A stretch of 64,000 nucleotides of DNA from Phycisphaerae bacterium. GTDB lineage: Bacteria; Planctomycetota; Phycisphaerae; SM23-33. The notes beneath the pieces were generated by a model. The model made no database searches. It was given only the letters and a program-made list of their open reading frames with translations, and was not told where the DNA came from. This document shows positions 1,428 to 59,630 of the stretch, piece by piece (position 1 is the stretch's first letter; each line of letters starts with the position of its first letter). The position numbers and the translations under genes were made by a program. The stretch spans positions 53,256 through 117,255 of the forward strand of contig JBDKRA010000029.1 of assembly GCA_039683615.1 (NCBI GenBank). The letters are read 5' to 3'.

Positions 1428-1464
1428 TCAGGGACGCGCACAACGGAGTTGTGCGTGGCACCCG
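1428..1464. repeat. Palindromic repeat element (CGCACAACGGAGTTGTGCGTGGCACCCG family), copy 1
   Basis: Near-identical 36-nt copy at 30372-30407. Contains the internal hairpin CGCACAAC-GGAG-TTGTGCG. Confidence 0.6.
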
Positions 1465-13882: not shown

Positions 13883-14284
13883 TCAAACGCCCGCAAGCAA
13901 AATCACGTCCGGCACCTTGGCTCGATGGACGGCGTTGACGGCCTCAACGACGTGATCCCACGCCACGTCGCCGTCGGTGCGCACCCGGATTTCCAGCCGA
14001 AGGCCCGCAACCTTCTGTCGTACGATTTCCTGATAGAGGTCCTGGGCGTCGCTGGCCCAGAACGTGGTGCCGTCGATACGATATACCGCTGCATCACCCT
14101 GGGCCCCCACCCGCAGCGTCAACTGCCGCACCATATCCAAACCGCCGCCTCCGCCGGGCAGGGCGGCCGGAATCAGCCCTTCCGTGGGGCGCATCTGAAA
14201 CCCGATCAGGAAGAAGATCAGGAGCTGGAAGGTCACGTCGATCATCGGCGTCAGGCTCAAAGCGGATGTTCGCGGACTTTTCAT
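13883..14284 (-). CDS. exbD: Biopolymer transport protein ExbD/TolR family (paralog 1)
   Basis: LTPMIDVTFQLLIFFLIGFQ TM helix typical of ExbD/TolR. Start placed at MKSP. Confidence 0.8.
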   Translation of the reverse strand: MKSPRTSALSLTPMIDVTFQLLIFFLIGFQMRPTEGLIPAALPGGGGGLDMVRQLTLRVGAQGDAAVYRIDGTTFWASDAQDLYQEIVRQKVAGLRLEIRVRTDGDVAWDHVVEAVNAVHRAKVPDVILLAGV

Positions 14285-14306: not shown

Positions 14307-14810
14307 TCAACTGCTGCCGCTTGGCGCAAAGGCCACATTCTTGAGCCCCGCACGCACGGCGGCGTTGAAGGCCTCGACGACAAACTCCCATTGCACGTCC
14401 CCTTCGGCGCGGATCACGACGGGAACCTTATCGGAACCCTGGCTGCTTCTCTGCGCTTCCAGATGACGTTTCAATTCTTCAGAATCAGTGGTCTCGATCA
14501 GCGTCTGTTCGATCTGGTAGACGGCCTGATCTTTCTCCTCGCCCTGCGGGCGGACGCGGACGAAGACCGTCTTGAAGATATTCTGTTGGTCGACGCTGCC
14601 GATGCCTTCGGCAGGCAGCGAGGAGGGGATCAGCCCTTCCGTCTCGCGCATCTGAAAGCCGATCAGGAAGAAGATGATGAGCTGAAAGGTCACGTCGATC
14701 ATCGGCGTCATCGGCGGTTGCATGGCGCCGGAGGGCGGCTTGCGCTTCTTGCGGGGCGGAATATAATGGACGGCTTCTTCGCCCTGAATCTTTTTTACCG
14801 ATTTGGCCAT
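14307..14810 (-). CDS. exbD: Biopolymer transport protein ExbD/TolR family (paralog 2)
   Basis: MTPMIDVTFQLIIFFLIGFQ; basic cytoplasmic N-terminus. Confidence 0.85.
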   Translation of the reverse strand: MAKSVKKIQGEEAVHYIPPRKKRKPPSGAMQPPMTPMIDVTFQLIIFFLIGFQMRETEGLIPSSLPAEGIGSVDQQNIFKTVFVRVRPQGEEKDQAVYQIEQTLIETTDSEELKRHLEAQRSSQGSDKVPVVIRAEGDVQWEFVVEAFNAAVRAGLKNVAFAPSGSS

Positions 14811-14813
14811 GGG

Positions 14814-15368
14814 TTATTCGCTTCCCCTCTTAGGCAAGGCCGTGATGTTCATCTTGGGGATCCTGGCCCCCAGTCCGGCCATGATCACCGGCTCGACGTC
14901 GGACCATCGCGTGCGCTTATCGGCGCGGACAACCATGGTGAAGTCTTTTTCGGGCTTGTCGGCCGCCCGCGCGGCATTCTTGCGATCTTCCAGCATGGGC
15001 ACCATCATGGCGACGGCGTTGTCCGGCTTGATCTCTTGCTTGCGCAGGTTGCTCTGGCGTGAAGGCATGCGGATCATATAGTATTCCACGCGCCCTCGCA
15101 GATAGCTGGGGACCGCCTGTCCTTTGTACTTCATGGCCGAGTCTTCGGAGACCACGTTGACGATGACGTGGTTTCCGGCCTTGTTGACCGCCTGGTCATT
15201 CAGGGCTTGGCTGACCTTCGGGCGCGACAGGGCGATCCGCAAGTCCAGTTCGTCCGACGCGCTCTGGCCGGAGAGCATGAAGAAAATGATCAACTGGAAC
15301 GTGACGTCGATCATCGGCGTCATGTTCATGTCGGCCTTGCTGTCGGCAAATATGTTTTTCTTGGCCAT
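14814..15368 (-). CDS. exbD: Biopolymer transport protein ExbD/TolR family (paralog 3)
   Basis: MTPMIDVTFQLIIFFMLSG; 3-nt gap to paralog 2. Confidence 0.85.
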   Translation of the reverse strand: MAKKNIFADSKADMNMTPMIDVTFQLIIFFMLSGQSASDELDLRIALSRPKVSQALNDQAVNKAGNHVIVNVVSEDSAMKYKGQAVPSYLRGRVEYYMIRMPSRQSNLRKQEIKPDNAVAMMVPMLEDRKNAARAADKPEKDFTMVVRADKRTRWSDVEPVIMAGLGARIPKMNITALPKRGSE

Positions 15369-19491: not shown

Positions 19492-19708
19492 GGCAGTACT
19501 CCCCAACAGCAGGTTCTCTCCGATCCTCAAGGCCGGGCCACTGCCGCTTGCGGGTTGGCAGGTTCTCTGCTTGCCGAACAACTGCCAGGCCGCAAGCGGC
19601 AGAGGGAACAGCCGGATTCTTCAGGCATGTCGGCCCCGGGCATTTTTCGCTATGGCCCGGCGGCCGCGTGTTCGTATGATTAGACGCAGTAGTTGCAGAA
19701 AAGTTCCC

Positions 19709-22023: not shown

Positions 22024-22818
22024 TTAAGCTGGCTGCAACTCTTTTCTTCGTTTGTCCAGTTGGCTCTTGAGGCGTTCCAGGACGGCTGAGTGCATCTGGC
22101 TGACGCGGCTTTCGGAGAGGTCGAGCGTCTGGCCGATCTCTTTCATCGTCATCTCTTCGTAGTAGTACAGGACGATGATGAGCCGTTCGGCGCGGCTGAG
22201 GCCGCGCGTCAGGAGGTCCTTGATGTCCTTGCCCTGGGCGACATGCAGCGGGTCGTCGCTGCGCTTGTCTTCGAGCACGTCGATCTCGCGCACGTCCTTG
22301 CTCGAGTCGGTCTCGAACCACTTGCGGCTCAGCGAGACCTGCCCCACCGTCGCGGCGTCGCGCTTGACCTTCTCGAACTCGCTCATCGACAGCTTCATGC
22401 GCTTGGCCAATTCTGAATTGGTCGGGCTGCGTCCGAGTTGCGCCTCGAGCTCGCGCGAGGCGAGATTGAGCTTGTGAGCGCGGCTGCGGACGAGGCGCGG
22501 CACCCAGTCCATCGATCGCAATTCGTCGAGGATGGCCCCGCGGATGCGCGGACTGCAATACGTCTCGAACTTGACGCCGCGGCCTTCGTCGAACGCCGTC
22601 AGCGCGTCCATCAGCCCGAAGATGCCGGCCGAAATCAGATCGTCGACGTCAACCTCTTCCGGCAGCTTGGTGTACACCCGCTCGGCCGTGTACTTCACAA
22701 GCGGCAGGTAGTACTCCAACAGTTGGTTGCGCGACTCTTCGTCGGCAGTTTTTCTGAACTGTTTCCACCAATGTTCGAGTTGCTCTGGAGACAACTTCTT
22801 CCGTGCTACTGGCGGCAT
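22024..22818 (-). CDS. fliA: Flagellar sigma factor FliA (sigma-28)
   Basis: Sigma-70 regions 2, 3 and 4 in a ~260-aa protein (LISAGIFGLMDALTAFD, FETYCSPRIRGAILDELR, MKEIGQTLDLSESRVSQMHSAVLERLK). Lies beside the flagellar operon. Confidence 0.85.
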   Translation of the reverse strand: MPPVARKKLSPEQLEHWWKQFRKTADEESRNQLLEYYLPLVKYTAERVYTKLPEEVDVDDLISAGIFGLMDALTAFDEGRGVKFETYCSPRIRGAILDELRSMDWVPRLVRSRAHKLNLASRELEAQLGRSPTNSELAKRMKLSMSEFEKVKRDAATVGQVSLSRKWFETDSSKDVREIDVLEDKRSDDPLHVAQGKDIKDLLTRGLSRAERLIIVLYYYEEMTMKEIGQTLDLSESRVSQMHSAVLERLKSQLDKRRKELQPA

Positions 22819-22859
22819 GATAGGCTCCTTCCATCAATGCCCAGGCCATCCTTGGCCAT

Positions 22860-23031
22860 GTGCCTGATGATATTAACAATGCGATAAGTGCTCATCAAGT
22901 TCCTTTGTGACATTATCTTAGGAAATTGGAAATTTTTTTTCGTTACGCGGATCATATTACCCATGTTCTACATGTTATGTATATTCTATACACTACCTAT
23001 ATTCTGTCAAGCCACTTTATGAAATATTCTT
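22860..23031. promoter_or_regulatory. AT-rich island between flhG and fliA (candidate fliA promoter/regulatory region)
   Basis: ~170 bp of <40% GC in a ~65% GC background (…ttatgtatattctatacactacctatattctgtcaag…). Confidence 0.4.
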
Positions 23032-24971: not shown

Positions 24972-27054
24972 AATGATCTTCCGTGATCGTCACCGGCTGC
25001 ACCTGCACGCCGGAGACTTCGTCGTATCCCAGAACCACCGCCGCCGGAACCGCCGTCGCCACCGCGCCGGCCAGGGCCCTGCGCAGCATGGGCCGGCAGA
25101 GCACCACCGGACGATGGCCCCCCACTCGTAGCCGGCTTGCTCCGGCCGAAACCGCCTGGGCGAGCGTCTCGGCCAAAGCTGGCGAGAGCACCCCGCCGCC
25201 GAGTCCGAGCTCCCGGGCTGCGGACTGTTCGGTCTTCTCGTCCAGGCACAGGCACCACAGGGCCCCGTCGGCGGCGCAGTACTGTTGCGACAGCGCCGGG
25301 CCGAGCTGGCGGCGGATGTAATCGCACGCTTCTTCGATCGGCTCCTCGACCGGTCGCTCGGCCAGTGCTTCGAGGATCGTCTCCAGGTCGCGCACCGATA
25401 CGCCCTGGCCCAGCAGATGCTGCAGGACCTTGTGGATGCGGGCCAGCGGCAGCTTGGCCAGCGTCTCTTTGACCAGCGCCTCCGCCCGGCCGCGGAGTGC
25501 CTCGACCGTGGCGGCCACCTGCTGGCGCGTCAGAAGCGAGGCGGCGTGGATGCGGATCATCTGCCCCAGGTGCGTCATGAGAACGTCGGCCGGCTCGATG
25601 ACCGTGTAGTTGAGCGACTCGGCCGTAGCGACCTGGTCGGCAGCGATCCACACCGCCGCCGTTCCGAATGCCGGCTCGATGGTCTGTCGCCCCAGAAGTT
25701 GACCGGTGGTCGCCCCTGCCGCGACGGCCAGAAGTTGCCCCGGGTACAGCATGCCGCCGCCGACGCGAGCGCCGCGAATCTTGACGACGTACTCGTGCGC
25801 CCGCAGACGCATATCGTCGCGAATGCGGATCGAGGGAACGATCAGACCCAGTTCCAGCGCCACGTCGCGCCGCAGGCCGGCCAGGCGGTCCAGCAGGTCG
25901 CCGTCGCGTGTCTTGTCGGCCAGCGACAGCAGCGCGAAACCCAGGTCCAGTTCCATCGCCTCGACAGCCAGCAGGCCTTTGAGTTCTTTGTCGTCGGCCG
26001 CGGGCTTAGAGACGGTCGAGATGCTCGACGCGTTTGCCGCGGGCAACACGCGCCGCCGTGACAACAGCAGCGCCAGTCCCGCGCATCCGGCCCCCATCAA
26101 CAGCAGCGGCACCTTGGGCAGGCGCGTCAGCATGAGAGCGGCCAAGAACCCCGCCGTCACGGCCAGTGCGATCGGGCGTGCGATCAACTGGCCGATCACC
26201 TGCTCGGCAAAGTTGGTGCGGTCCATGCTGCGCGAAACGATTAGCGCCGCGGCCACGCTGACCAGCAGCGCCGAAATCTGGGCTACCAGCCCGTCGCCGA
26301 TGGTCAGCCGCGTGAACAGGTCGAGCGTCTGCTCCCACCCCCAGGAGTACTGGACCATGCCCACGTACAGCCCGCCGCCGATGTTGACCAGCACGATGAC
26401 CACAGCCGCCACCGCGTCGCCGCGGACGAACTTGGACGCGCCGTCCATCGCGCCGTAGAAATCGGCCTCGCGGGCGATCTTGCGGCGGCGCTGGTGGGCC
26501 TGCGACTCATCAATGGTCCCGGCGTTGACGTCGGCGTCGATGCCCATCTGCTTTCCGGGCATTGCGTCGAGCACGAACCGCGCGGCCACCTCGCTGATAC
26601 GGGCGGCGCCTTTGGTGATCACCACGAACTGCACCACCGCGATGATCGCGAAGAGGATCACGCCCACGGCCAGGCTGCCGCTGGTGACGAACTGGCTGAA
26701 CGACCAGACCACGTGCCCGGCCGCCAGGCGCGCCGTCTCGACATCGGCCCCGCCTGCCCCAGCCGTCAGGATCAGCCGCGTCGTGGCGATGTTGAGCACC
26801 AGCCGCAGCAGCGTCGCTCCCAGCAGCACCGAGGGGAACACGCTGAACTCCAGCGGGCTGTGCACGGCGATGGCCGTCATCAAAATGATCGCCGAGAGGG
26901 CGATGTTGGCCGAGAGCAGCACGTCCATCAGCAGCGGCGGCAGCGGCACCAGCAGCACCAGCACCAGCAGGGCAGCCCCGCCGGGCAACAGCAGCCCGCG
27001 GTATCGCGCCAGCACCCGCGCGGCGCCGTTCATGGTGTCGTTCAGGTCAGCCAT
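24952..27054 (-). CDS. flhA: Flagellar export apparatus protein FlhA
   Basis: Full-length FlhA: FHIPG-like TM domain, conserved FVRGDAVAAVVIVLVNIGGG loop, large cytoplasmic domain. Confidence 0.92.
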   Translation of the reverse strand: MADLNDTMNGAARVLARYRGLLLPGGAALLVLVLLVPLPPLLMDVLLSANIALSAIILMTAIAVHSPLEFSVFPSVLLGATLLRLVLNIATTRLILTAGAGGADVETARLAAGHVVWSFSQFVTSGSLAVGVILFAIIAVVQFVVITKGAARISEVAARFVLDAMPGKQMGIDADVNAGTIDESQAHQRRRKIAREADFYGAMDGASKFVRGDAVAAVVIVLVNIGGGLYVGMVQYSWGWEQTLDLFTRLTIGDGLVAQISALLVSVAAALIVSRSMDRTNFAEQVIGQLIARPIALAVTAGFLAALMLTRLPKVPLLLMGAGCAGLALLLSRRRVLPAANASSISTVSKPAADDKELKGLLAVEAMELDLGFALLSLADKTRDGDLLDRLAGLRRDVALELGLIVPSIRIRDDMRLRAHEYVVKIRGARVGGGMLYPGQLLAVAAGATTGQLLGRQTIEPAFGTAAVWIAADQVATAESLNYTVIEPADVLMTHLGQMIRIHAASLLTRQQVAATVEALRGRAEALVKETLAKLPLARIHKVLQHLLGQGVSVRDLETILEALAERPVEEPIEEACDYIRRQLGPALSQQYCAADGALWCLCLDEKTEQSAARELGLGGGVLSPALAETLAQAVSAGASRLRVGGHRPVVLCRPMLRRALAGAVATAVPAAVVLGYDEVSGVQVQPVTITEDHYEREEL

Positions 27055-27838
27055 CGCTGCCCTCCGTCGGCTTGCGCAGCGATGCCCGCCCGCGCCGTTT
27101 GCTCATTTCCCGCCGCCGAGCCAGGCGGATCTGCGGGTCGCCTTCCATCTTTCGCATGTCGTCGAGGTACTCGCGCCGCGTCATCTTCAGGTCCTGGCGG
27201 AACTGCCATCGCTGGTAGAACAGGTCCACCACCGCCAGCGCCAGCAGCGCCGCCGACGCCCGGATTGCCACCTTCAGCACCGCCCCGCCGCCCCAGGCCG
27301 CTATCTCCTCGCTGCCCCCCGACGTCGGCAAGGCCGTCATGATCCCCAGCGGCGACAGCGCCGCCCATGCAATCGCCCCTGCGGCTGTCACTTTCGCCAG
27401 GCCCAACCCCACGCGCACCCACACGCGGCGGCCGAAGAGCCCTTTCAATCCTTTCATCAAGCCCACGCGCGACAGGTCGAACTTGACCGGCTCGCCTGTC
27501 ATCAGCGGGCCGACCTGTCCCAGCCCAGCGCCGATCGCCAGCAGCGCCGCGGCCAGGCACAGCGCCCCGCCCAGCCACAGCACGCTGCCCAGGCCGGCGA
27601 TCTCAAACGCCCCCGTCGCGCTGGGGGCGCTCTTGCCCGCGGCGTCCAGACTCGCTGAGAACATTTCCCTCATCGCGTTCGTGAGCGACCCGGCCAACGC
27701 CATCAACAGCATCAAGCTGCCAAAGACGACGATCGCGCCGGAGAAGTCCGCGCTGCGCGCAACCTCTCCGCGCCGCCTGGCCTCCTGCAACCGCAGGGGC
27801 GTCGGCATCTCGGTCCGGGATGTAGCGTCTTCACTCAT
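27047..27838 (-). CDS. flhB: Flagellar export protein FlhB, transmembrane domain only (C-terminal cytoplasmic NPTH domain absent)
   Basis: N-terminus PTPLRLQEARRRGEVARS and four TM helices; linker KMTRREYLDDMRKMEGDPQIRLARRRE. The ORF stops 8 nt inside flhA, before any NPTH autocleavage region. Confidence 0.75.
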   Translation of the reverse strand: MSEDATSRTEMPTPLRLQEARRRGEVARSADFSGAIVVFGSLMLLMALAGSLTNAMREMFSASLDAAGKSAPSATGAFEIAGLGSVLWLGGALCLAAALLAIGAGLGQVGPLMTGEPVKFDLSRVGLMKGLKGLFGRRVWVRVGLGLAKVTAAGAIAWAALSPLGIMTALPTSGGSEEIAAWGGGAVLKVAIRASAALLALAVVDLFYQRWQFRQDLKMTRREYLDDMRKMEGDPQIRLARRREMSKRRGRASLRKPTEGSDG

Positions 27839-27850
27839 TCAAACAACTCA

Positions 27851-28008
27851 CCACAGAGGCACAGAGGGCGCAGAGGTAAGAAACAAAACAAGAACCGGGT
27901 GGCATGGCGACATGCGTTGCTGTTCCTTGCGGGTCACCATGCCACCCGTCGCTCGCATCCATCCTGTTGTTGCTTTTTCATTCACTCGTTCTTCTCTGTG
28001 CCTCTGTG
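27851..28008. repeat. Nested palindromic element in the fliR-flhB intergenic region
   Basis: Outer 16-bp inverted repeat CCACAGAGGCACAGAG / CTCTGTGCCTCTGTGG. Inner inverted repeat CGGGTGGCATGGCGAC / GTCACCATGCCACCCG. Shares the GAAACAAAA..GTCGCCATGCCACCCG word with 30331-30362. Confidence 0.6.
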
Positions 28009-28020
28009 GTCAGTCTTTCT

Positions 28021-28803
28021 TCACCCGCCGGCGGCGAGCTGCGCGGCCTTGGCGCCGAGCATATCGGCGCCGCGTTCGATCATCGGCAGCATCAGCGCCA
28101 GGCCGCCGGCCAGGGCGATCAGGCCCACCAGCGCCTGGGCCGGCAGGCCGACGGTCAGGATGTTCAGTTGGGGCATCGTGCGTCCGACCACCGCCAGCAC
28201 CACGCCGATCACCAGCAGCGTCACCACCACCGGGGCGGCGATCTTGATGGCCATCACGAACGAGGCCGCCAGCACCGACATGGCGATGTTCAGCATGCCC
28301 TGCCCGCTACCGATGGCGCCCGGCGCAACGGCAGTGAACGTGCCCATCAGCCCGCTCAGCAGACCGCGGTGCCCGCCGACAGCCAGGAACACCACGATGC
28401 CCAGCAGGTACATCAGCCGCGTCAGCGGATCGTCGCCGCCTTCGCCGTCGGCGGCGTCTGCGTAATACACCTGCCCCAGCGTCAGGCCCATCTGCTGACC
28501 GATCAGGGCAGCCGCCACTTCGATACCTGACAGCAGTGCCCGCGCGGCCAGGCCGATCACCGACCCGATCAGCGCCTCGACGGCCAGCGCGACCAGCCCC
28601 GCACCCGTCGAGACGGGCATGGCCAGCGGCGTGGCGATCTGCGCAGCTGCACCCAGCGCCAAGGCCACGCACAGCAGATATCGCAGGCGGGCGGGCAGCA
28701 CCGAGCTGCTGAAGACCGGCGCGATAACGAACAGCCCGCCGATGCGGGCCATCAGCAGCGCCAGAGTCCAGCCCCAGGTTGTGTACTGCGACAAATCCAT
28801 CAT
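28021..28803 (-). CDS. fliR: Flagellar export apparatus protein FliR
   Basis: ~260-aa polytopic membrane protein directly downstream of fliQ, with a FliR-like N-terminus. Confidence 0.8.
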   Translation of the reverse strand: MMDLSQYTTWGWTLALLMARIGGLFVIAPVFSSSVLPARLRYLLCVALALGAAAQIATPLAMPVSTGAGLVALAVEALIGSVIGLAARALLSGIEVAAALIGQQMGLTLGQVYYADAADGEGGDDPLTRLMYLLGIVVFLAVGGHRGLLSGLMGTFTAVAPGAIGSGQGMLNIAMSVLAASFVMAIKIAAPVVVTLLVIGVVLAVVGRTMPQLNILTVGLPAQALVGLIALAGGLALMLPMIERGADMLGAKAAQLAAGG

Positions 28804-29056: not shown

Positions 29057-29863
29057 TTATCCTTGTGCGAAACTTTGCATCAGCGTGCCGACGACCAGGT
29101 GCCACCCGTCAGCCAGCACGAACAGCAGCAGTTTGAACGGAATCGAGACCATCACCGGCGGCATCATCAGCATGCCCATCGACGTCAACACCGACGCCAC
29201 CAGCAGGTCCACCACCAGGAACGGCAGGTACACGCGGAAGCCGATCCAGAAGGCGGTCTTGAGCTCGCTGACGACGAACGCCGCGATCACGGCCGGCGTG
29301 GGCACATCCTTCCACGTCAGCTTGCCCGCGCGCGAGGCCTCGCTCTGCTTGGCGTCCAGGAACAGCACCACGTCGTTCTGGCTGTTGGAGGCCTCGATCT
29401 GGCGGATCATGAACGTCCGCACCGGCGCGGCGCCGGCGGCCAGCGCCGCCTCGCCCTGCGCACGGCCGGCGAGATACGGCTCGATTCCGTCGCGATACAC
29501 CGCCGAATAGACCGGCGACATCACGACCACCGTCATCAGCAGCGCCAAGCCGAAGAGCACCTGGTTGGGCGGCAACTGATTGGTCGCCATCGCCTGGCGC
29601 AGCAGCCCCAGCACGACGACGATCCGCGTGAAGCACGTCATCAAAATCGCCACCGCCGGCGCGACGGAAAGCACCGTCACCAGGGCGACCCACTTGAGGG
29701 CGTTGCCCGCATCCTGCGGACTCGACAGGCTCGGCAGCGATATCCCAGTCGCCGCAGCGGCGGCGGGCGCTGTCGCCGCTTGCGGCGCGGCAGGCGCCGA
29801 CTGCGGCGCGAACACCGCAGCCGCCAGCACCACCGCAGCAAGGATGTTTTTCTTTGAACTCAT
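29057..29863 (-). CDS. fliP: Flagellar export apparatus protein FliP
   Basis: Signal peptide, then FTRIVVVLGLLRQAMATNQLPPNQVL and a C-terminal FliP signature. Confidence 0.88.
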   Translation of the reverse strand: MSSKKNILAAVVLAAAVFAPQSAPAAPQAATAPAAAAATGISLPSLSSPQDAGNALKWVALVTVLSVAPAVAILMTCFTRIVVVLGLLRQAMATNQLPPNQVLFGLALLMTVVVMSPVYSAVYRDGIEPYLAGRAQGEAALAAGAAPVRTFMIRQIEASNSQNDVVLFLDAKQSEASRAGKLTWKDVPTPAVIAAFVVSELKTAFWIGFRVYLPFLVVDLLVASVLTSMGMLMMPPVMVSIPFKLLLFVLADGWHLVVGTLMQSFAQG

Positions 29864-30318
29864 TTCGGTTCGATAGACTCTTTCGCGGGCGTCTGCGCCG
29901 CCGGCGTGCCCAGCAGCGCCGCCACTTCATCCGCGTCCGTCACTTCCGACAGCGTCGTCATCTGCTCGGGGCCCACGCCCACCAGCACCAGGCGGCGGCC
30001 CATGCGGACCAGGATCACCTGGTGCCGGTACGTCACGCTGCGGCGGGCGACGATCTCGATGGCTGCGCCGCCCCGCACGCCGACTCGCTGGCCGCCCATG
30101 CGCTTCATCGCCGAGCGGACAAGCAGGATCAGGGCGATTACCACCGCCAGAGCCCCCGCCGTGCGCAGCAGGTCCCACTCGGCGCCTGGGGCAGTCCCCT
30201 TGCCGATGGGCCGCTCCTCGACCGACTGCAGCGGCCGCGTGGAGACGTCCGTCGTTGCCGGGGCGCTCTGGGCCATGATGGTTGTGGCTGTCAGAAGAAT
30301 CGCCGCTGCGACGATCAT
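29860..30318 (-). CDS. fliO: Flagellar protein FliO
   Basis: Single TM helix MIVAAAILLTATTIMA. ~150-aa protein immediately upstream of fliP. The track N-terminal extension was rejected because it runs through the repeat elements. Confidence 0.6.
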   Translation of the reverse strand: MIVAAAILLTATTIMAQSAPATTDVSTRPLQSVEERPIGKGTAPGAEWDLLRTAGALAVVIALILLVRSAMKRMGGQRVGVRGGAAIEIVARRSVTYRHQVILVRMGRRLVLVGVGPEQMTTLSEVTDADEVAALLGTPAAQTPAKESIEPK

Positions 30319-30330
30319 GGCGACCCGCTT

Positions 30331-30407
30331 GAAACAAAAACGCGTGTCGCCATGCCACCCGACTGGGAGTTCAGGGACACGCACAACGGAGTTGTGCGTG
30401 GCACCCG
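30331..30407. repeat. Two adjacent repeat elements inside the flagellar operon (fliN-fliO spacer)
   Basis: 30331-30362 GAAACAAAAACGCGTGTCGCCATGCCACCCG is related to 27879-27948 and 35645-35672. 30372-30407 is near-identical to 1428-1464. Confidence 0.6.
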
Positions 30408-30458
30408 TCGCGCATGTCGCGGACGTCTCGCCCGCGTCTTGTTGTTTCCCTGCACGTT

Positions 30459-30686
30459 TCATGTCGTTCTCGCGCCGTCTATCCGCACGCCCAGGCGGTC
30501 CTGCACGCTCACCAGCGTGCCCACTGCCGTCGCTGCGCCGTCGCGGCTTATTTCGACCGCCCCGGCCGCAGGCGTATCGAGCGTGACGATCGAGCCGGGC
30601 GCCAACTCCCGCAGCGCCGCCGCGTTCAGCCACGCCCTGCCCAGGTCGATGCGTACGGCAGTCTGTGTTTCCTGTTGCGTCGTCAT
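30459..30686 (-). CDS. fliN: Flagellar motor switch protein FliN (SpoA domain)
   Basis: RIDLGRAWLNAAALRELAPGSIVTLD...VQDRLGVRI is the FliN/SpoA C-terminal domain. Confidence 0.75.
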   Translation of the reverse strand: MTTQQETQTAVRIDLGRAWLNAAALRELAPGSIVTLDTPAAGAVEISRDGAATAVGTLVSVQDRLGVRIDGARTT

Positions 30687-32468: not shown

Positions 32469-33222
32469 GCACGCTCGTATCCGCGGCCGGGATGTACCGG
32501 CCGGTCGTATTTTGCTGTGGCTCGCTGGGCCGACCGAGCAGCGCCTGGGCGACCCGCCGCAGTTGCGTTTCGATGGTCGCGTCGACCGCCCCGCAGCGCG
32601 TCAGCACTCGCGCGCCGCCGGCGGCAATGCTGCTGTCGGCCTCGAACCGCACGCGGCCGGCGCGGGCGAGCTGCCGCCAGAGGCGCTGGCCTTCCTGCTC
32701 CAGCGCCGGAAGCTGCCCAGGATTGACGCACACGATGATCTCGTCGGCGTCGCTGGCCAGCTCCATCGCCCGGCGCAGGTTCACCAGCGCCGCGCGAGTG
32801 TCCACGGCCGCCACTTCGCCCACGATCCGCCGCGCCAGCTCGATGCCGAATCGCAGCAACTGCTCCTGGCGGTCCTGCTGGACCTGCCCGGCGGCCGCGG
32901 CCAGTTCGTCCACGATCTTGCCTGCCGCCTGCGCCAGGGCGGACATTCGCAACTGGCTCTTCTGGGCCGCCTGCCGCAGGCCGTGAGCGTAGCCTTCGGT
33001 CTGGCCGCGCTGGAATCCTTGCTCGTAGGCGCTGCGGTTGTAGTTGGTCTGGGCCGACTCGAGCTGCGCCTGTGCGGCGGCGACGATCTGCTGAGCCTGC
33101 AAGCGGGCCTGGTCGAGAATTTCTTTGCCCGCGGCCTCGAAGTCCGGCAGGGCCAACTCGGGCGCGCCGGCGTCGCCGCACGCGGCGGCTTGGATGATCC
33201 AGGCTGTCTTGGAGGCGTTCAT
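32455..33222 (-). CDS. fliH: Flagellar assembly protein FliH
   Basis: Coiled-coil N-terminal half and a FliH/YscL-like C-terminal domain. Start set at MNASK. The upstream in-frame extension is arginine-rich high-GC noise. Confidence 0.65.
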   Translation of the reverse strand: MNASKTAWIIQAAACGDAGAPELALPDFEAAGKEILDQARLQAQQIVAAAQAQLESAQTNYNRSAYEQGFQRGQTEGYAHGLRQAAQKSQLRMSALAQAAGKIVDELAAAAGQVQQDRQEQLLRFGIELARRIVGEVAAVDTRAALVNLRRAMELASDADEIIVCVNPGQLPALEQEGQRLWRQLARAGRVRFEADSSIAAGGARVLTRCGAVDATIETQLRRVAQALLGRPSEPQQNTTGRYIPAADTSVHADI

Positions 33223-35123
33223 GTGGCGGCGGCCTCCCGTGCTTCGTCGAGCGTGCTGCCGCAGCGGCGAACCATGCGGGCGACGTGGTCCTGGGCGGCT
33301 TCCACTTCGCTCAGCCGCACCGGCGGCAGCGTGTCCATCTGGCGGCGCAGGTCTCGCGTCGCGCGGCCGCCGATGCAGTGGAAGATTTTCGTGCGGATGG
33401 CCTGGCCCGCTGTGCGCATCGCCACGGCCAGCACCTGCGGATCGAGTGCGGCCAGTGCGGCGCGGAGTTCGTCGTCGTCGACAAGTTCGAGGTCTTCGAA
33501 CCCCAGCATGTCGCGGCGGATGTTGCGGGCCAGTTGCGGCTGACTCGAGGCCACCAGGTCCATCACGGTCCCGCCGGCGGCACCGCCGGCGTGCGTGAGG
33601 ATGTCGCGAATGACGGCCTCGCCCTGGCCCTGCGGAGTGTGGAGGGCGTTGAGGCGGTCGATGAGCGTATCCAGCACGTCCTGCACCGTTCGCTCGTCGA
33701 CCGTTAGCGGGTGCGCCAGGTGCATCACCACCTGCCGAGCGATCGGGGCATCGAGCGCGGCCAGCATCGCCGCCGACCGCCGCGGGTTCATCCGCGAAAG
33801 CACGATGGCGATCGTCTGCGTCTGCTCGGCCGCCAGCACCCACAGCAAATCGTCGTCGGCCAGGAGCTCCAGCCGGCGAATCTTGCTCTCCTCGGCCGTA
33901 ATCTCGCACGGCGGCTGCGCCACCTGCTCGGCCGCGGTGCGAGCCCTGGCACGACGGCGGCGACGCACGGCCGCGATGATGCAGAAGACCCCCGCCGCAA
34001 CCAGCACACCCGAGCCGGCGACAGCCCAGCCGCTACGGCCCTGCTGCGGCGGGCCCACAAATGCTGCCGCGAGGGCTTTGCCCGATAGCGCGTCGGTGTA
34101 GCAGTCGACGCTGACGGCCTTGGCGTCGGCCCCGATGATTCGCGCCGCGGCGGCGGCGATCCGTGCCGACTCATCGCGCGTGACTTGCTGAATGTCGAGA
34201 TTACGGCTGGCGGCGATGGCCTCGAAATAGCTCCGCGGCGCCAGCAGTGACGCGGCGGTGCAAGACTCGCCCTGCACCGCTGCGGTGACAGTCAGGCCCG
34301 GCACGTACGTCAGGGCCCCGGCGATGCGCTGCTGCCAGTAGTCGGCCACGCGGGCGCGGTTGGCCAGCCGGTCTTCCTGCGCCAGCGTCTCGTCGCCTGG
34401 CCGGTAGCTGCGCCCGCGCTGGTCGATCACGCACACGGCAGTGCGCTCCAGTCCGGCGTTGCTGCCGGCCAGCAGGTCGGCGATGGCGTTGACGAGTTGG
34501 GCGCTCATGCGCGCCTGGGCCCGCATGCGGAGGTTGACCGCAGCGGTGGCCGCGACTGCGGGCTGGCCGATCTTGCCGGCGCGGCCGCCCTCGAAGATGA
34601 CCTCGGCGTACTCGACGTCGGGGAACTGGCCGATCAGGCGCGAGAGCCGCTCGGCCTTGGCGGCCGCGGCGCGCTGTGAACGCTGCGATTCCGACAGCCA
34701 GATGTCTTCCTGAGACGAAGCCGCCTGCGCCGCGAGATCCTGCGGCGTCAGTGAGGCGTCGGTGAGGATCTTACGCGCCGCCGGCAGCGCGTCGGGCTGC
34801 ACGAGCAATCGCCCGCCGACGATCTGGCACTCGATGCCCCCGCCGGAGAGCATGGCGGCGGCGTTCTTGACGTGCTCGGCCGGCAGAGGCTGGTTAAAGA
34901 CGGCCTTGCGCTGCGGGGCAGCGTCGCTGGCCATCAGCCAGATGCCCCCCGCCACCGCCAGCACGGCCAGCGCAGCAAGGGCCGCCTGCCAGATGCGGCC
35001 GGTGACCGTCGCCTGGGCCTTGAGCCTCAGCCAAAGTTTGTACAGCACCTTCACCACGCGGTCCTCCGTGACCGCAAGTTGAGTGGCACGGCAAGAACGC
35101 GTGCCACCCGCTCGATCATCCAT
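33219..35123 (-). CDS. fliF-fliG: Fused FliF (MS-ring) and FliG (rotor/switch) protein
   Basis: N-terminal ~410 aa has TM1, an RBM1-like block (VFNQPLPAEHVKNAAAMLSGGGIECQIVG) and TM2. C-terminal ~215 aa has the FliG middle motif EQTQTIAIVLSRMNPRRSAAMLAALDAPIARQVVMHLA and the torque-helix region RLSEVEAAQDHVARMVRR. Single uninterrupted 634-codon ORF. Confidence 0.8.
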   Translation of the reverse strand: MDDRAGGTRSCRATQLAVTEDRVVKVLYKLWLRLKAQATVTGRIWQAALAALAVLAVAGGIWLMASDAAPQRKAVFNQPLPAEHVKNAAAMLSGGGIECQIVGGRLLVQPDALPAARKILTDASLTPQDLAAQAASSQEDIWLSESQRSQRAAAAKAERLSRLIGQFPDVEYAEVIFEGGRAGKIGQPAVAATAAVNLRMRAQARMSAQLVNAIADLLAGSNAGLERTAVCVIDQRGRSYRPGDETLAQEDRLANRARVADYWQQRIAGALTYVPGLTVTAAVQGESCTAASLLAPRSYFEAIAASRNLDIQQVTRDESARIAAAAARIIGADAKAVSVDCYTDALSGKALAAAFVGPPQQGRSGWAVAGSGVLVAAGVFCIIAAVRRRRRARARTAAEQVAQPPCEITAEESKIRRLELLADDDLLWVLAAEQTQTIAIVLSRMNPRRSAAMLAALDAPIARQVVMHLAHPLTVDERTVQDVLDTLIDRLNALHTPQGQGEAVIRDILTHAGGAAGGTVMDLVASSQPQLARNIRRDMLGFEDLELVDDDELRAALAALDPQVLAVAMRTAGQAIRTKIFHCIGGRATRDLRRQMDTLPPVRLSEVEAAQDHVARMVRRCGSTLDEAREAAAT

Positions 35124-35474: not shown

Positions 35475-35611
35475 AAAGGTCTCAAGTGCTGCGCTCACGG
35501 TCGACCGGCTACTACTCTTTACGCTTTGCAAAATGTATAGCACCTGCGGCAAAGCAGCAACGGAAAAATCTTTAGAAAATCTGAAAAAAGTTACCGCCAC
35601 GACGATATGGG

Positions 35612-35657
35612 CGTCCTCAGCGACCTCAGCGGCTAACTAATCCCCCGGAAACAAAAA
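35612..35657. repeat. Partial copy of the 43370-43547 inverted-repeat element
   Basis: 25 nt (CGTCCTCAGCGACCTCAGCGGCTAA) identical to 43493-43517, then a similar tail (CTAATCCCCCGGAAACAAAAACG vs TTTAACCCCCAGAAATTGGTCGCAAAAACG). Confidence 0.6.
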
Positions 35658-35691
35658 CGTGTATCGCCATCCCGGCCGGTTCGCCGGTACA

Positions 35692-39436: not shown

Positions 39437-41566
39437 ATGAAAACCCCCGATAGAATGCTCTTTTGCCCAAAGGAGAGGACGTTGACCGCCACACAGACCA
39501 CACCGCAGACGCAGGACCCAGCGGAGAAACGCATCGAGGACGCCCGAACCATCGCCGACCATTTCGAGCAGTCCATCGCCATCACACCGCCGGAGATTCG
39601 CCCCGTCGGCGTCATTGCCGGCCCTCTGCACCGCAATACCGTGCCCAAAACCAACTGGGGCGGCGATAATCTGCACTACCCGATGGACGTCCGCACACTG
39701 ATGCGGTTGGGCGCGCCCGGCATCGCCGCTACCGCACGCACCAACGCCGCACGCCTCGCGCACGAGCAGGCCGACTACCTGCGCAACATCGCCCGCGCGT
39801 TCGACGCCGTCACGGCGTTCATCGCCGCGCACGCCAAGGCCGCCCAGGATCAAATGCCCGGCGCGACCACGGCCGAGCGCCGTCGCCTCAAGACCATCGC
39901 CGATAACTGCACCGCCCTGGCCGCCGGGCCGCCGCAGACCTTCGCCCAGGCCGTGCAGCTCTTCTGGTTCGTGCATTCGCTGCGCGGAATGGCCGACGTC
40001 TCCAGCACCATCGGCCGACTCGACCAGCACCTCGATCCGTTCTACAAAGCCGACATCGCCGCCGGCCGAATCACGCGCGACGAGGCCCTTGAGCTGACGT
40101 GCGAGTTGTGGCGGCTGCTGAACGTCGTGGTCTCGCACCCGGCGCAGGGGCTGATGAACCTGATGGTCGGCGGGCAGGACGCCGCCGGCAACGACGCCAC
40201 CAACGACATGTCGTACCTGCTGATCGACACGGCCATCGCCGTCAACGACACCAACCCGTTCCTCAGCGCCCGTATCCACGCCGGCAGCCCGGCAGCGTTT
40301 GTAGACAAAGTCGTCGAGCTGCAACTCGTCGGCCACGGGCAGGGCACGATATATAATGATGAGCTGATCATCCCCTCGCTGGTGCGTTACGGGGTGCCGA
40401 TCGAGTTGGCCCGCAACTACGCCAACGACGGCTGCAACGAGGTCACCATCGACGGGCAGTCGACCATCGACCTCAACCTCGTCGATTCGCTCAAGGCACT
40501 GGAGTACGTGATCTTCGACGGGGCCGACAACCCCTCCTGCCGCCAGCAGCCCAAGGCCACCTGCCGCAACTACGATACGCCCGGCCACCACACGGGCATG
40601 GCCGAGCCGGGCATCAAGACCGGCGACTTCGCCGCGATGACCAGCTTCGACCAGGTCTTCCAGGCCTTCTGCAAGCAGTTCTATCACCAGATCGACACGC
40701 GCCTGGAGCACTCCCGCCAGGGACGCATCTGGGCGGGCGACCACGCCGTCAGCGCCCCGGTGATGGCCGGGACGTTCGCCTCGGTGCTCGATAGCGGCCG
40801 GGACCCCTACCGCGGCGGCGTCGAGGTGCCGATCCTGTGCATGTTCCTGGGCTCGATGGGCACCGCCGGCGACGCCCTGGCGGCGATCAAGAAAGTCATC
40901 TTCGACGACAAGGCCGCCACGCCCGCCCAGCTTCGCGACGCCCTGGCCTCCGACTGGAAAGGCTTCGACGCGCTGCGCCGCCAGTGCCTCTCTGCACCCA
41001 AGTACGGCAACGATGACGACTACGTCGACAGCATTCTCGCAGCGGCCGTGCGCGGCGCCGTCGACCGCGTCAAAGCCGCCCCCGCAGCCCCTGGGCAGAC
41101 CGTTCTGCCGGCGCTGTTCAACCATGTGTTCCTCGCCACCGCCCAGAACTGCGGCGCCACGCCCGACGGGCGAAAGTGGATGGAACCGGTGGGCGAGCAT
41201 TTCTCGCCAGTCCCCGGCCGCGCCGTCAGCGGCCCCACCGCCGTCATCCGTTCGGCCACCAAGAGCCCGCTGGCCGACGCCGCCGGCGTGGCGATCTTCC
41301 ACGTGGGCCTCTCACGCGACATGGCCCCCAACAATGCCAGCGGCGCTGCCCTGGTTAAGAGCCTGCTCAAAGCCAGCCTCAAGATGGGCGCCACCGTGAT
41401 GAACACGGCGATCTACGACATCGAAACCCTCAAGGCCGCCAAGGCCCACCCCGAAAACTACGCCGACCTGATCGTGCGAGTGTGGGGCTACTCCGCAAGA
41501 TTCGTGGGCCTGTCCGCAGAAATGCAGGACCATATCATCGCCCGCGCGGTCAGGGACAAAAACTGA
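39437..41566 (+). CDS. Glycyl radical enzyme, pyruvate formate-lyase-like family
   Basis: KYGNDDDYVD block, Cys-loop-like NDGCNEV, C-terminal glycine-radical motif LIVRVWGYSARFVGLS (the canonical motif is RVSGY). Confidence 0.8.
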   Translation: MKTPDRMLFCPKERTLTATQTTPQTQDPAEKRIEDARTIADHFEQSIAITPPEIRPVGVIAGPLHRNTVPKTNWGGDNLHYPMDVRTLMRLGAPGIAATARTNAARLAHEQADYLRNIARAFDAVTAFIAAHAKAAQDQMPGATTAERRRLKTIADNCTALAAGPPQTFAQAVQLFWFVHSLRGMADVSSTIGRLDQHLDPFYKADIAAGRITRDEALELTCELWRLLNVVVSHPAQGLMNLMVGGQDAAGNDATNDMSYLLIDTAIAVNDTNPFLSARIHAGSPAAFVDKVVELQLVGHGQGTIYNDELIIPSLVRYGVPIELARNYANDGCNEVTIDGQSTIDLNLVDSLKALEYVIFDGADNPSCRQQPKATCRNYDTPGHHTGMAEPGIKTGDFAAMTSFDQVFQAFCKQFYHQIDTRLEHSRQGRIWAGDHAVSAPVMAGTFASVLDSGRDPYRGGVEVPILCMFLGSMGTAGDALAAIKKVIFDDKAATPAQLRDALASDWKGFDALRRQCLSAPKYGNDDDYVDSILAAAVRGAVDRVKAAPAAPGQTVLPALFNHVFLATAQNCGATPDGRKWMEPVGEHFSPVPGRAVSGPTAVIRSATKSPLADAAGVAIFHVGLSRDMAPNNASGAALVKSLLKASLKMGATVMNTAIYDIETLKAAKAHPENYADLIVRVWGYSARFVGLSAEMQDHIIARAVRDKN

Positions 41567-41601
41567 CCACAGAGACACGGAGGGGGATGAGGTAAAAACA
41601 G

Positions 41602-41714
41602 AGACTTTGCCACAAAGAGCACAAAGACCACGAAGAAGAAGACGAAGAGATTTGGTCCCCGTCACTCTCTGTGTTCTTTGTGACCTTTGTGGCAAAGCTT
41701 CTTCTTTCTTTTTG
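41602..41714. repeat. Long imperfect inverted repeat (CTTTGCCACAAAG...CACAAAG family) between the GRE gene and the next gene
   Basis: Left arm CTTTGCCACAAAGAGCACAAAGACCACGAAGAAGAAG and right arm CTCTGTGTTCTTTGTGACCTTTGTGGCAAAGCTTCTTC are reverse complements with a few mismatches. Confidence 0.5.
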
Positions 41715-41724
41715 CGAGAGCAAA

Positions 41725-43367
41725 CGATGAACATGCGAAATGGTCTGGTGGCATTGTCGGTGATCGTTCTTCTGGCCGCTTGCGGCTTCGCGGATGTGCC
41801 CAAGGTCCCCCCGCCGGTCGGGGCGCCGCTGGCGGCGAAGTGGGAGTATAGTCGCGACGGCGGCAAGACGTTCTCCCCTGAGGCGCCGGCGGTGACGGTC
41901 ACCAGCGGACCCGACGCCAAGAACGCCCTCGTCGCGCGGGCGACGTTCAGCATCGACGACATGGCGAAGATCGGCGCCGTAAAGATCGTGACGGCGTCTG
42001 GCACCGGGGCCTTCGCCCTGACCGACGCCGACAGCGTCCAGCGGCGGTACGTCGGGGCGTACCCCACGCTCGTCAACGCCAGGCTGGCCGTCAACGGCAA
42101 GGAGACCGACGCCGGGCATTTCCCCTCGCGTCTATACAACTATCTCACCATCGACCCGGACCTGCTGCACAAGGGCGCCAATACGCTGACAGTCGCCGCC
42201 GTGCTGTGGGCGCCGCCGACTGTTAAGACCGACGCTCCGGCCGGGCTGAGCCTGGAGACGCTCGGGACGGACATGGTCTCGCTCGACCGCGGGCCGACGC
42301 TGGGGGCCATCGGCGAGGACTACTTCACCTTCACCGCCCGCGCCGTCACGGCCTGCGATTTCAGCGTGAGCGTCAAGCCCATCGAGCCGGCCGGCGCGGA
42401 GACGCAGCAGGCCTTGCCCAAGGCGCGGCTGCTGCGGGCGAAGGTAGCGCTTGCCAAAGGAACGAAGAAGTTCGCCTACACGCTGACGGCCAAGTCGGCC
42501 GGCGGGGCGACCAAGGCGTACGGGCCTTACGAAGTGGTCGTGCCGGTCTTCGGCGAGGGGTTCAAGTTCGTCGCCGCGGCCAACACCTACATCTACGGGC
42601 ACCATCCCGAGGAGCTCAAGGCGTTCTTCGCCAAGCTGCCCTCGTCGGGCGGGCAGATCTTCGTGCATGGGGGCGTGATGCAGAACGTGGCCACCCACGA
42701 CCAGATGTGGACGAACGACTTCTTCTACTACAGCCGCGAGGCCCTGGCCCGCATGCCGATGTACGCTGTGCCGGGCTACCCCGACACGTACTCGATGGAA
42801 GCCTGGGGCAGCGAGTTCTACTTCCCCACCCCCGACGGGACATGGAATTACTGGACGCAGGCTTTCGGCAAGGTGCGGCTGATCGGGATCGAGGCGATGT
42901 CGATGATGGAGGACAAAGGCGCGGGCAAGGCCTGGCTCGAGGACGTGCTCAAGAACGCCAAGGAAGATTACGTCATCGTCTTCAACTCGCAGGCGCCAAA
43001 CTGCTCGGGCCAGAACGCCAAGTACTACTCAAAGCCGGCGGTGGAGTACATCGCCAAGGAGATCAGCCCGCTGCTGGTGAAGTACAAGGTGACGGCCACC
43101 ATCGGCAGCTACCACTACAGCTACCAGCGCAACGAGCCGCCGGCCGACGAGAGCGTCACGACGATCATGACCAGCAAGGCCGGCGGGCTGGGCTGGCCGC
43201 TGCGCACGGATTTCGTGGCCGCCAACAAAGAATCGAAAGTCGCCGTCGGATACAAGAACCACTACTGCCTCTTCGAAGTGACCAAAGACGCCCTGCAGAT
43301 GCAGGCGATAGCGTACGAGACCGGAGAGGTCATCGACAAGGTGACGTTCAAACCGCGGGCCAAGTAA
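41725..43367 (+). CDS. Hypothetical secreted lipoprotein
   Basis: Signal/lipobox LVALSVIVLLAACGF. ~545 aa. No confident family. Start placed at MNMRNG. Confidence 0.6.
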
Positions 43368-43369
43368 TT

Positions 43370-43547
43370 AGCCGCTGAGGTCGCTGAGGACGCTGAGGGG
43401 GAGGGATGGAATAGTGGAATAACGGAATAATGGACTTGGTCCTTTGACCGGTATTCCACCATTCCATCATTCCCTTGTTCGTTCTTCCTCAGCGTCCTCA
43501 GCGACCTCAGCGGCTAATTTAACCCCCAGAAATTGGTCGCAAAAACG
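43370..43547. repeat. MITE-like element with perfect 31-bp terminal inverted repeats
   Basis: TTAGCCGCTGAGGTCGCTGAGGACGCTGAGG (43370-43400) is the exact reverse complement of 43487-43517. The interior is also palindromic (GGAATAGTGGAATAACGGAATAATGG / CCACCATTCCATCATTCC). Partial second copy at 35612-35657. Overlaps the stop codon of the upstream gene. Confidence 0.6.
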
Positions 43548-52467: not shown

Positions 52468-52619
52468 AGCCGGCGTTCTGCTGCCAACGTCGAGAATCGA
52501 GGAGGCGTCCTTCCGGATGCCTCCTCGTTTTTTTGCACTGCCCGGCAAAAACTTTTGGCCGTTGGCCCGCGCTCTGCCATAATTGGCCTGGATCGCTTTC
52601 TGTGAAACGGAGACCGCTC

Positions 52620-59491: not shown

Positions 59492-59630
59492 CACAAAGAA
59501 GTTCCCGCCAACGGCGGGTAAACTGCGTTCAAAGTTTGGAGTGGTCGCCCCGCCGGGGGGCGACCACTTTTTTTCTGTTCGTTCGCTTGCTTTATTCCTG
59601 CTGCGTCTGTGAGCAGAAGAATAATGCCAT

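Follow-up and report, generated by a model that had tools for sequence, protein, structure and literature searches.

Nested REP and tandem-repeat palindromes, probably selfish insertions, in the flagellar operon of a Phycisphaerae bacterium

ERIC/IRU elements and the Correia elements (NEMIS) of Neisseria are imperfect palindromes of about 120-170 bp that are co-transcribed, and their long mRNA hairpins alter mRNA stability or processing. The nested palindromes described here, found in a flagellar operon of a Phycisphaerae bacterium, are like them in size and in insertion between co-transcribed genes, but have no sequence similarity to them, no TA duplication and no such terminal inverted-repeat signature, and their layered build is different. 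Another described system is REP/REPIN–RAYT of E. coli and Pseudomonas (PMC3733652, PMC6006769), where a REP is defined by a GT[AG]G tetranucleotide located 0-2 nt 5' of a stem of 7-20 bp (PMC6006769; also PMC3733652). The elements reported here share with this system (i) an unpaired GTGG directly 5' of a hairpin of at least 9 bp, (ii) dispersed, mostly extragenic copies that are apparently many, (iii) in relatives, inverted doublets with the tags pointing outward, (iv) a RAYT gene that is flanked by units in relatives, and (v) a preference for the 3' ends of genes with occasional sites inside operons. They differ from it in the extended tag GGGTGS, in the CAYG at the stem base, in the host, in loops of 21 nt in this genome versus 2-5 nt in canonical short REPs, and in that the copies of the analyzed DNA are single or double-tagged (apparently collapsed doublets), with RAYT known from relatives.

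Two further systems resemble the outer layers of these palindromes. Cyanobacterial STRR sequences (the STRR1-3 heptamers of heterocystous species; PMC2670836) are likewise intergenic tandem arrays of ~7 bp that form a hairpin with an inverted array between genes of one operon. Their sequences, however, are unrelated and come from another phylum, so that we point to a resemblance and claim no membership; moreover, here each locus has its own unit of 7-9 nt, and several arm types are multi-copy and enclose REPs. A REP at the centre of a longer palindrome is known from the nested doublets GTAG-15 of Anabaena variabilis and CGTC-1 of Halothiobacillus (PMC3733652), whereas the outer palindromes here belong to several families with tandem-repeat arms. 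Both kinds of element, REP/REPIN–RAYT and STRR-like hairpins, are already known, and what is new here is their members in an under-studied phylum. Such repeats are barely described in this phylum; a search of the literature on planctomycete repeat families returned general REP papers alone. A GGGTGS-tagged REP–RAYT family is now documented in Phycisphaerae. The wider interest is limited to where the tandem-repeat arms come from and how they came to be nested with REPs.

The window, that is, the whole stretch of 64 kb that was analyzed, has a G+C content of 65% and is matched by the Phycisphaerae-like planctomycete MAG GCA_021371965.1; a second assembly of the source species, contig JAJFVE010000180, was compared with it over 10.1 kb. 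The operon is located on the minus strand and includes fliN, fliO, fliP, fliQ, fliR, flhB, flhA, and flhF, which mostly overlap each other. The initial annotation had described an outer and an inner inverted repeat in the spacer between fliR and flhB and related words in the fliN–fliO spacer. All of the sequences it quoted were recovered in place, the two inverted repeats were confirmed, and the lengths that it gave for the spacers were correct. Coordinates of the features are collected in Table 1; contigs other than the window are designated by L numbers.

Table 1. Genes, spacers and palindromic elements of the window. Coordinates are window positions unless a contig is named; TRF, array found by TRF.
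Feature	Coordinates	Strand	Remarks
fliN	30459-30686	-	Gene call
fliO	29860-30318	-	Gene call
fliR	28021-28794	-	Gene call
flhB	27047-27838	-	Gene call
fliR–flhB intergenic spacer	27839-28020	-	182 nt; fliR stop codon 28021-28023, flhB start codon 27836-27838
Element A, whole nested palindrome	27846-28014		169 nt of the 182-nt spacer
Outer left arm of element A	27846-27866		Periodic array (CACAGAGG)3 at 27852-27876 (TRF)
Middle-layer arm of element A, GAAACAAAACAAGAAC	27880-27895		Imperfect pairing with ~27961-27979 (CTGTTGTTGCTTTTTC), from fold and direct reading
REP core of element A	27896-27948		CGGGTGG / CATGGCGAC / 21-nt loop / GTCACCATG / CCACCCG
Outer right arm of element A (CTCTGTGCCTCTGTGGTCAGT)	27994-28014		Inverted repeat
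fliN–fliO spacer	30319-30458	-	140 nt
REP type-1 unit	30316-30361	-	CGGGTGG-CATGGCGAC-ACGCGTTTTTGTTTCAAGCGG-GTCGCCATG; called fliO start codon (30318-30316) inside its 3' arm
REP type-2 unit	30378-30407	-	GGGTGC tag and CACGCACAAC-TCC-GTTGTGCGTG
Small hairpin GCGGGCGAGACGTCCGC	30419-30435	-	Recurs almost unchanged in L121 and between genes at L247 18033-18245
REP type-2 unit	1435-1464	-	58 nt downstream of lysC (aspartate kinase)
Short REP hairpin, tags on both sides (GTGGCACG…CGTGCCACCCG)	35083-35110		Between merR and fliF
Degenerate REP type-1 fragment (GAAACAAAAACGTGTATCGCCAT)	35648-35670	+	L121 ortholog reads GAAAGAAAAACGCGATGTCGCCATGG
Second palindrome, left end homologous to the outer arm of element A (ACTGACCACAGAGACACGGAGG…)	41560-41707		Immediately downstream of the stop codon of a PFL-like gene
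Layered palindrome	43366-43519		Perfect 33-nt arms (GCTGAGGNC)3, inner arms (GGAATNNT)n; half copy 35611-35636

The palindrome that nearly fills the fliR–flhB spacer, element A, begins 6 nt from the fliR stop codon and ends 7 nt from the flhB start codon. The folding energies proposed as a check in the initial annotation support structure in both spacers (z = -7.5 for fliR–flhB and -3.8 for fliN–fliO versus shuffles). For the former, the minimum free energy of the spacer RNA is -85.2 kcal/mol, compared with -54.0 ± 4.2 for shuffled sequences (z = -7.46), and 0 of 200 shuffles were as stable. The outer arms of element A are 21 nt each and 95% complementary, and their 16-nt core CCACAGAGGCACAGAG is exact at 27851-27866 (+) and 27994-28009 (-). 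The REP core bears tags on both sides and folds at -33.5 kcal/mol (z = -6.05); its inner inverted repeat pairs 27896-27911 with 27933-27948 over 16 nt with one mismatch. The stem of element A is followed by the tail UGUUUGAAUG, which is only moderately U-rich, and the whole falls short of an intrinsic terminator. A terminator scan gave nothing at the outer hairpin and a single match to a 5-pair stem within the REP core (27902-27915, +); canonical terminators are present elsewhere in the window (~52498-52535 and 59540-59575). With regard to a possible MITE, no direct duplication was found at the flanks of element A (AGAAAG vs TGTTTGA); the terminal inverted repeats are common to several loci and species.

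The fliN–fliO spacer carries two REP units and a small hairpin. The 16-mer GTCGCCATGCCACCCG, exact at 30346-30361 (+), is the reverse complement of 27896-27911, in agreement with the opposite orientation reported for this word. The presence of an element known from downstream of lysC also holds: the segments 1428-1464 and 30371-30407 are 97% identical over 37 nt, and their 28-mer core is exact at both sites and occurs in none of 100 shuffles. A further degenerate copy, supposed to overlap the start of a TPR gene, does exist (+), but the overlap probably does not stand, since the start of this gene by codon usage is at 35941 (the L121 ortholog has 290 aa) and the fragment is probably intergenic. 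Between the window and JAJFVE010000180 just three differences were observed over 10.1 kb (30428, 30442, and 30458), all of them crowded into a 31-nt segment of the fliN–fliO spacer, a clustering that points to local hypervariability or population heterogeneity.

The trait common to the inner units is a GGGTGS tag abutting a hairpin that begins with CAYG, rather than the sequence of the stem. The motif GGGTGSCAYG was observed six times in the window versus 1.09 expected, and all six sites are intergenic and adjoin a hairpin (1435-1464, 27896-27948 with both sides tagged, 30316-30361, 30378-30407, and 35083-35110). A seventh copy, also intergenic, is located outside the window in the next 7.7 kb of the same genome (L247 ~18059). 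In 6/6 window copies GTGG lies directly against CATGGCGAC or CACGCACAAC, as the REP definition has it for the tetranucleotide, and the stems, 9-10 bp or, with the tags paired in element A, 16 bp, agree with the definition as well. The loops of the type-1 units, 21 nt, are above the canonical length; those in relatives have 4-16 nt.

Reference genomes were scanned with the 16-mer GTCRCCATGCCACCCG; the matches listed are mostly due to chance, and five contigs of one Phycisphaerae MAG (SMBSF08), rich in units, stood out among them. The full-unit pattern GGTGGCATGGCGAC-N4-30-GTCGCCATG, with 24 fixed bases, is matched by at least 120 metagenome contigs. Among the contigs thus recruited, several share ~72% nucleotide identity with window genes and therefore come from relatives. 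The matched contigs listed, which were recruited by the unit and hence are a biased sample, contain 197 units in 585 kb. Neighbouring units in these contigs are inverted with the tags outward in 59 of 65 pairs and have the tags inward in none, with a typical spacing of 16-22 nt. Tags of the GGGTGS type are carried by at least 22 different stems, and 0 of 163 tag motifs in unrelated genomes have a hairpin.

The transposase expected for a REP family was found in the relatives. A protein of 192 aa encoded at L158 1739-2317, with inverted units on the flanks of its gene, scores 88.9 bits against the NCBIfam model NF047646, 'REP-associated tyrosine transposase' (cutoff 80). RAYT homologs also adjoin units in L149, and RAYT-like matches were obtained for the unit-bearing loci L128, L225, and L045. 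Altogether, 870 RAYT homologs were found, and those with source names are from Phycisphaerae, Pirellulales or other planctomycetes, mainly from the first two. The window has no RAYT gene by tblastn, and the association is demonstrated in relatives only, because there is none in the ~72 kb of the source genome covered. We identify the inner palindrome as a REP element. Its family is associated with RAYT, builds inverted doublets (REPINs), and is presumably mobilised by this transposase via single-stranded DNA hairpins. Copies adjoin genes for aspartate kinase, a nuclease, a PFL-like enzyme, a radical SAM protein and others, in either orientation. The window copies take the form of single or double-tagged hairpins. 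Two doublets are present in L121, and to judge from the merR–fliF alignment the double-tagged window hairpins are collapsed doublets. Classical GTAG-tagged REPs (CTGTAGGGTGGGTG…CACCCACCCTACAG) were observed beside the GTGG-tagged family in related Phycisphaerae (L115 6080-6155 and L145 ~214-243).

The outer and middle arms represent a second dispersed class, which is distinct from the REP layer and STRR-like by resemblance. Arms homologous to the (CACAGAGG)3 array of element A are found at 41560-41590 in the window, at ~14830-14868 of L247 from the same genome, and at 1052-1079 of L152 from a bog relative. Long hairpins with tandem-repeat arms of 7-9 nt abound in this Phycisphaerae lineage, the arm units being GTAGCCN, GAGTTGT, GCTGAGGNC, GGAATNNT, GATCCTN, and GTCCTC/GTCGTC. 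TRF detected arrays with periods of 7-9 in ~9 intergenic regions, almost every one of them at the 3' end of a gene, and further tandem-repeat hairpins are present in L247 and in the Ga0181520 relative. Those of the window almost always lie a few bases from a stop codon, and the genes on either side of them are tandem or convergent. The (GCTGAGGNC)3 arms of the palindrome at 43366-43519 are identical in the sister species L121, where the three-layer plan surrounds an inverted REP doublet. Hairpins with tandem-repeat arms come and go between sister species. Nesting as a general trait of the REP family was considered and rejected, as only 3 of 116 clusters in the listed metagenome contigs are nested versus ~1% in controls; REP nesting is specific to the lineage of the window. 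Arrays of CsrA-type GGA motifs were likewise rejected as an account of the arms, since they fit only some arm types.

A speculative joint reading, to which we give a rather small chance, is that the tandem-repeat hairpins are an undescribed class of self-renewing 3'-end elements in Phycisphaerae. Under this reading, the arms may grow by slippage and arm-to-arm copying, or have some unknown route of mobilisation; the hairpins may serve as the main transcript ends and decay barriers of the lineage; their single-stranded apical loops may be favoured landing sites for RAYT-mobilised REPs; by looping out of the mRNA they may keep stop and start codons adjacent, which would let them enter coupled operons, as at fliR–flhB; and they may later be co-opted to tune the ratios of the flagellar export gate subunits. 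A third dispersed hairpin family (…GCCGCTTGCGGCTTGGCAG…CTGCCAGGCCGCAAGCGGC…) was observed at non-syntenic sites of three genomes (window 19538-19605, L121 18827-18880, and L152 925-1010).

Comparison of orthologous loci reveals the history of the insertions. Among the four relatives whose FlhB identity is 43-47% (L123, L244, L245, and L246), the fliR–flhB spacer measures 0 nt in two, 10 nt in one, and 11 nt in one. The sister species L121/L122, with 77% FlhB identity, has a spacer of 84 nt with a different hairpin, (GGATGAAT)n; this spacer has the same sequence in an NCBI MAG as in a Logan assembly that is independent of it. In the fliN–fliO spacer of both close species, the 5' parts align and the middle hairpins differ. 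Both spacers are missing in the more distant relatives compared. The REP unit at the start of fliO is orthologous in L121, with one paired change from A-T to G-C. At the merR–fliF site orthologous to 35083-35110, L121 carries a complete inverted doublet, which differs by a 28-nt central indel from the single double-tagged hairpin of the window. By the same alignment, a central deletion of the 28-nt type is a plausible origin of the double-tagged core of element A. Orthologous regions downstream of fliA differ by the indel of a whole hairpin. The insertions are lineage-specific, and the elements are not conserved, as the initial annotation had them, being missing or different in relatives. Another foreign insertion in the operon was observed in L245, where a gene for a 23S-rRNA-intervening-sequence protein (PF05635; 2799-3182) is located between fliQ and fliR.

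The structures in the flagellar operon are, probably, layered insertions of selfish palindromic repeats, with no flagellum-specific element among them. Because the REP copies are nested in tandem-repeat hairpins of a type widespread in the lineage, the fliR–flhB hairpins do not appear to be flagellum-specific control. The suggestion of a mobile palindromic repeat family, one of several put forward in the initial annotation, is thereby borne out with two components, the inner unit being a RAYT-family REP and the outer arms a second dispersed family. The same annotation had considered that the copies might be parts of a larger dispersed repeat without positional bias; they do belong to dispersed repeats, but favour gene 3' ends.

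Selfish insertions of this kind may still affect the mRNA. Element A is predicted to fold back on itself in the polycistronic message. The stop codon of fliR and the start codon of flhB would then be only ~13 unpaired nt (6 + 7) apart, close to the ancestral 0-11 nt, which probably accounts for the insertion being tolerated in the coupled operon. To judge from REP and STRR hairpins elsewhere, likely by-products would be partial attenuation of transcription after fliR and shielding of the upstream fliNOPQR message from 3' exonucleases. Initiation at both flhB and fliO is likely dampened, as the base of the hairpin would pair the -3 to -20 region of the former and the AUG of the latter would lie within a REP stem. 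From these analogies we infer attenuation, protection of the upstream message and occlusion of start sites as putative effects on the operon; RNA processing or attenuation by the REP/STRR hairpins is thus plausible here as a side-effect. REP325 doubles as a terminator and a stabiliser (bioRxiv 10.64898/2026.03.23.713779), protective 3' structures are known inside operons (PMC5927463), and a STRR hairpin between hupS and hupL has been proposed to play a role in transcript stability or translational coupling (PMC2670836).

These precedents also speak for an exapted attenuator or stabiliser, a hairpin after fliR that, whatever its origin, would be kept by selection and set unequal expression of fliNOPQR and flhBAF by partial termination and protection from 3' exonucleases. 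We regard this explanation, taken as a whole, as possible though doubtful. Both sister species have a stable hairpin at exactly the fliR–flhB junction, with different sequences, and share an orthologous REP with one compensatory pair at the fliO start, two observations that could reflect selection for structure; UGUUUGAAUG comes after the stem; and the periodic-arm hairpins of the genome lie nearly always just past stop codons. However, the four more distant relatives have just 0-11 nt at the junction, the terminator scan gave no match at the outer hairpin, and an insertion hotspot would yield the same pattern. A cis-regulatory RNA specific to the two spacers, such as a riboswitch-like element, sRNA target or RNase site, might be suspected from very stable, non-random folds and from words common to two spacers of one operon. 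This flagellum-specific reading is largely refuted and highly improbable: the units occur in either orientation beside unrelated housekeeping genes, are missing in relatives and belong to a RAYT-associated family, and Rfam 15 at the gathering threshold gave two tRNAs alone in the whole window. An internal promoter for flhB or fliO within the palindrome, another suggestion of the initial annotation, has to be dropped as very improbable too. The spacer would otherwise be too short for a promoter, and by direct reading the TGGCAT words are like the -24 box of sigma-54, but no sigma-70-like site was found in 27600-28250, and the motif appears on either strand and follows unrelated genes. In our own reading of the sequence, TGGCAT/TGGCAC was rejected as a sigma-54 site, the spacing from GG to GC being one base longer than the consensus, the orientation inconsistent and the -12 box missing.

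The two remaining alternatives concern gene and assembly boundaries. FliO might be translated from an ATG overlapping the fliN stop codon (30462), with the REPs in frame in an N-terminal extension. An uninterrupted frame runs from 30462 to fliO in the window as well as in L121, for which the gene caller gave a FliO of 209 aa (7448-8077); the gaps in the alignment, 15, 12, and 6 nt long, are all divisible by three; and intragenic REPs are known (PMC3733652). We nevertheless consider a coding spacer unlikely: GC3 is 0.65 versus 0.86 in the fliO core, the three differences between assemblies would all be non-synonymous, in the source assembly Prodigal places the start of fliO at 30318, and at 65% GC an open frame of ~48 codons is nothing unusual. 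Most likely, the fliN–fliO spacer is non-coding. Finally, the source is a MAG, in which palindromes might result from mis-joins, but such an artefact is hardly credible here, since the window and JAJFVE010000180 agree fully in element A, the flanking genes are intact, and two independent assemblies, from NCBI and Logan, agree on the spacer of the sister species.

Reading the palindromes as selfish insertions has several implications. REPs and STRR-like hairpins nest and turn over fast between sister species, even within a tightly overlapping operon. A false lead is removed, as the fliR–flhB structure is no flagellar riboswitch or promoter. If the hairpins alter mRNA fate, they would be natural cases of selfish palindromes re-tuning gene ratios within an operon. 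The repeats also mislead gene callers, FliO having been stretched through them in one assembly (L121), and REP and tandem-repeat palindromes may break metagenome assemblies as well. REP-encoded peptides such as GWHGD were observed in spurious open reading frames of L158.

Several observations concern the genes of the window. FlhB (27047-27838, -) has 263 aa, spans positions 2-240 of 335 of the Pfam family Bac_export_2, and ends just ahead of where the NPTH autocleavage site and the C-terminal switch domain would be; this domain is not encoded anywhere in the 64-kb window. Close homologs are all short (253-272 aa), and more distant planctomycete FlhB proteins retain NPTH. Pfam matches to FliF (YscJ_FliF) and FliG (N, M, and C domains) were found in a single protein of ~612-633 aa in L121 (2847-4691) and L123 (1534-3435). 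These matches in the orthologs suggest a natural FliF–FliG fusion in the clade; the window ortholog is located at 33219-35057 (-). An A+T-rich intergenic region of 312 nt (22720-23031; 42% G+C) is located upstream of a fliA-like sigma factor gene, and the orthologous region of L121 is similar. An 82-nt direct repeat with 91% identity (14172-14253, 14629-14710, and 15279-15323) occurs in three adjacent small genes on the minus strand, which are probably tandem paralogs.
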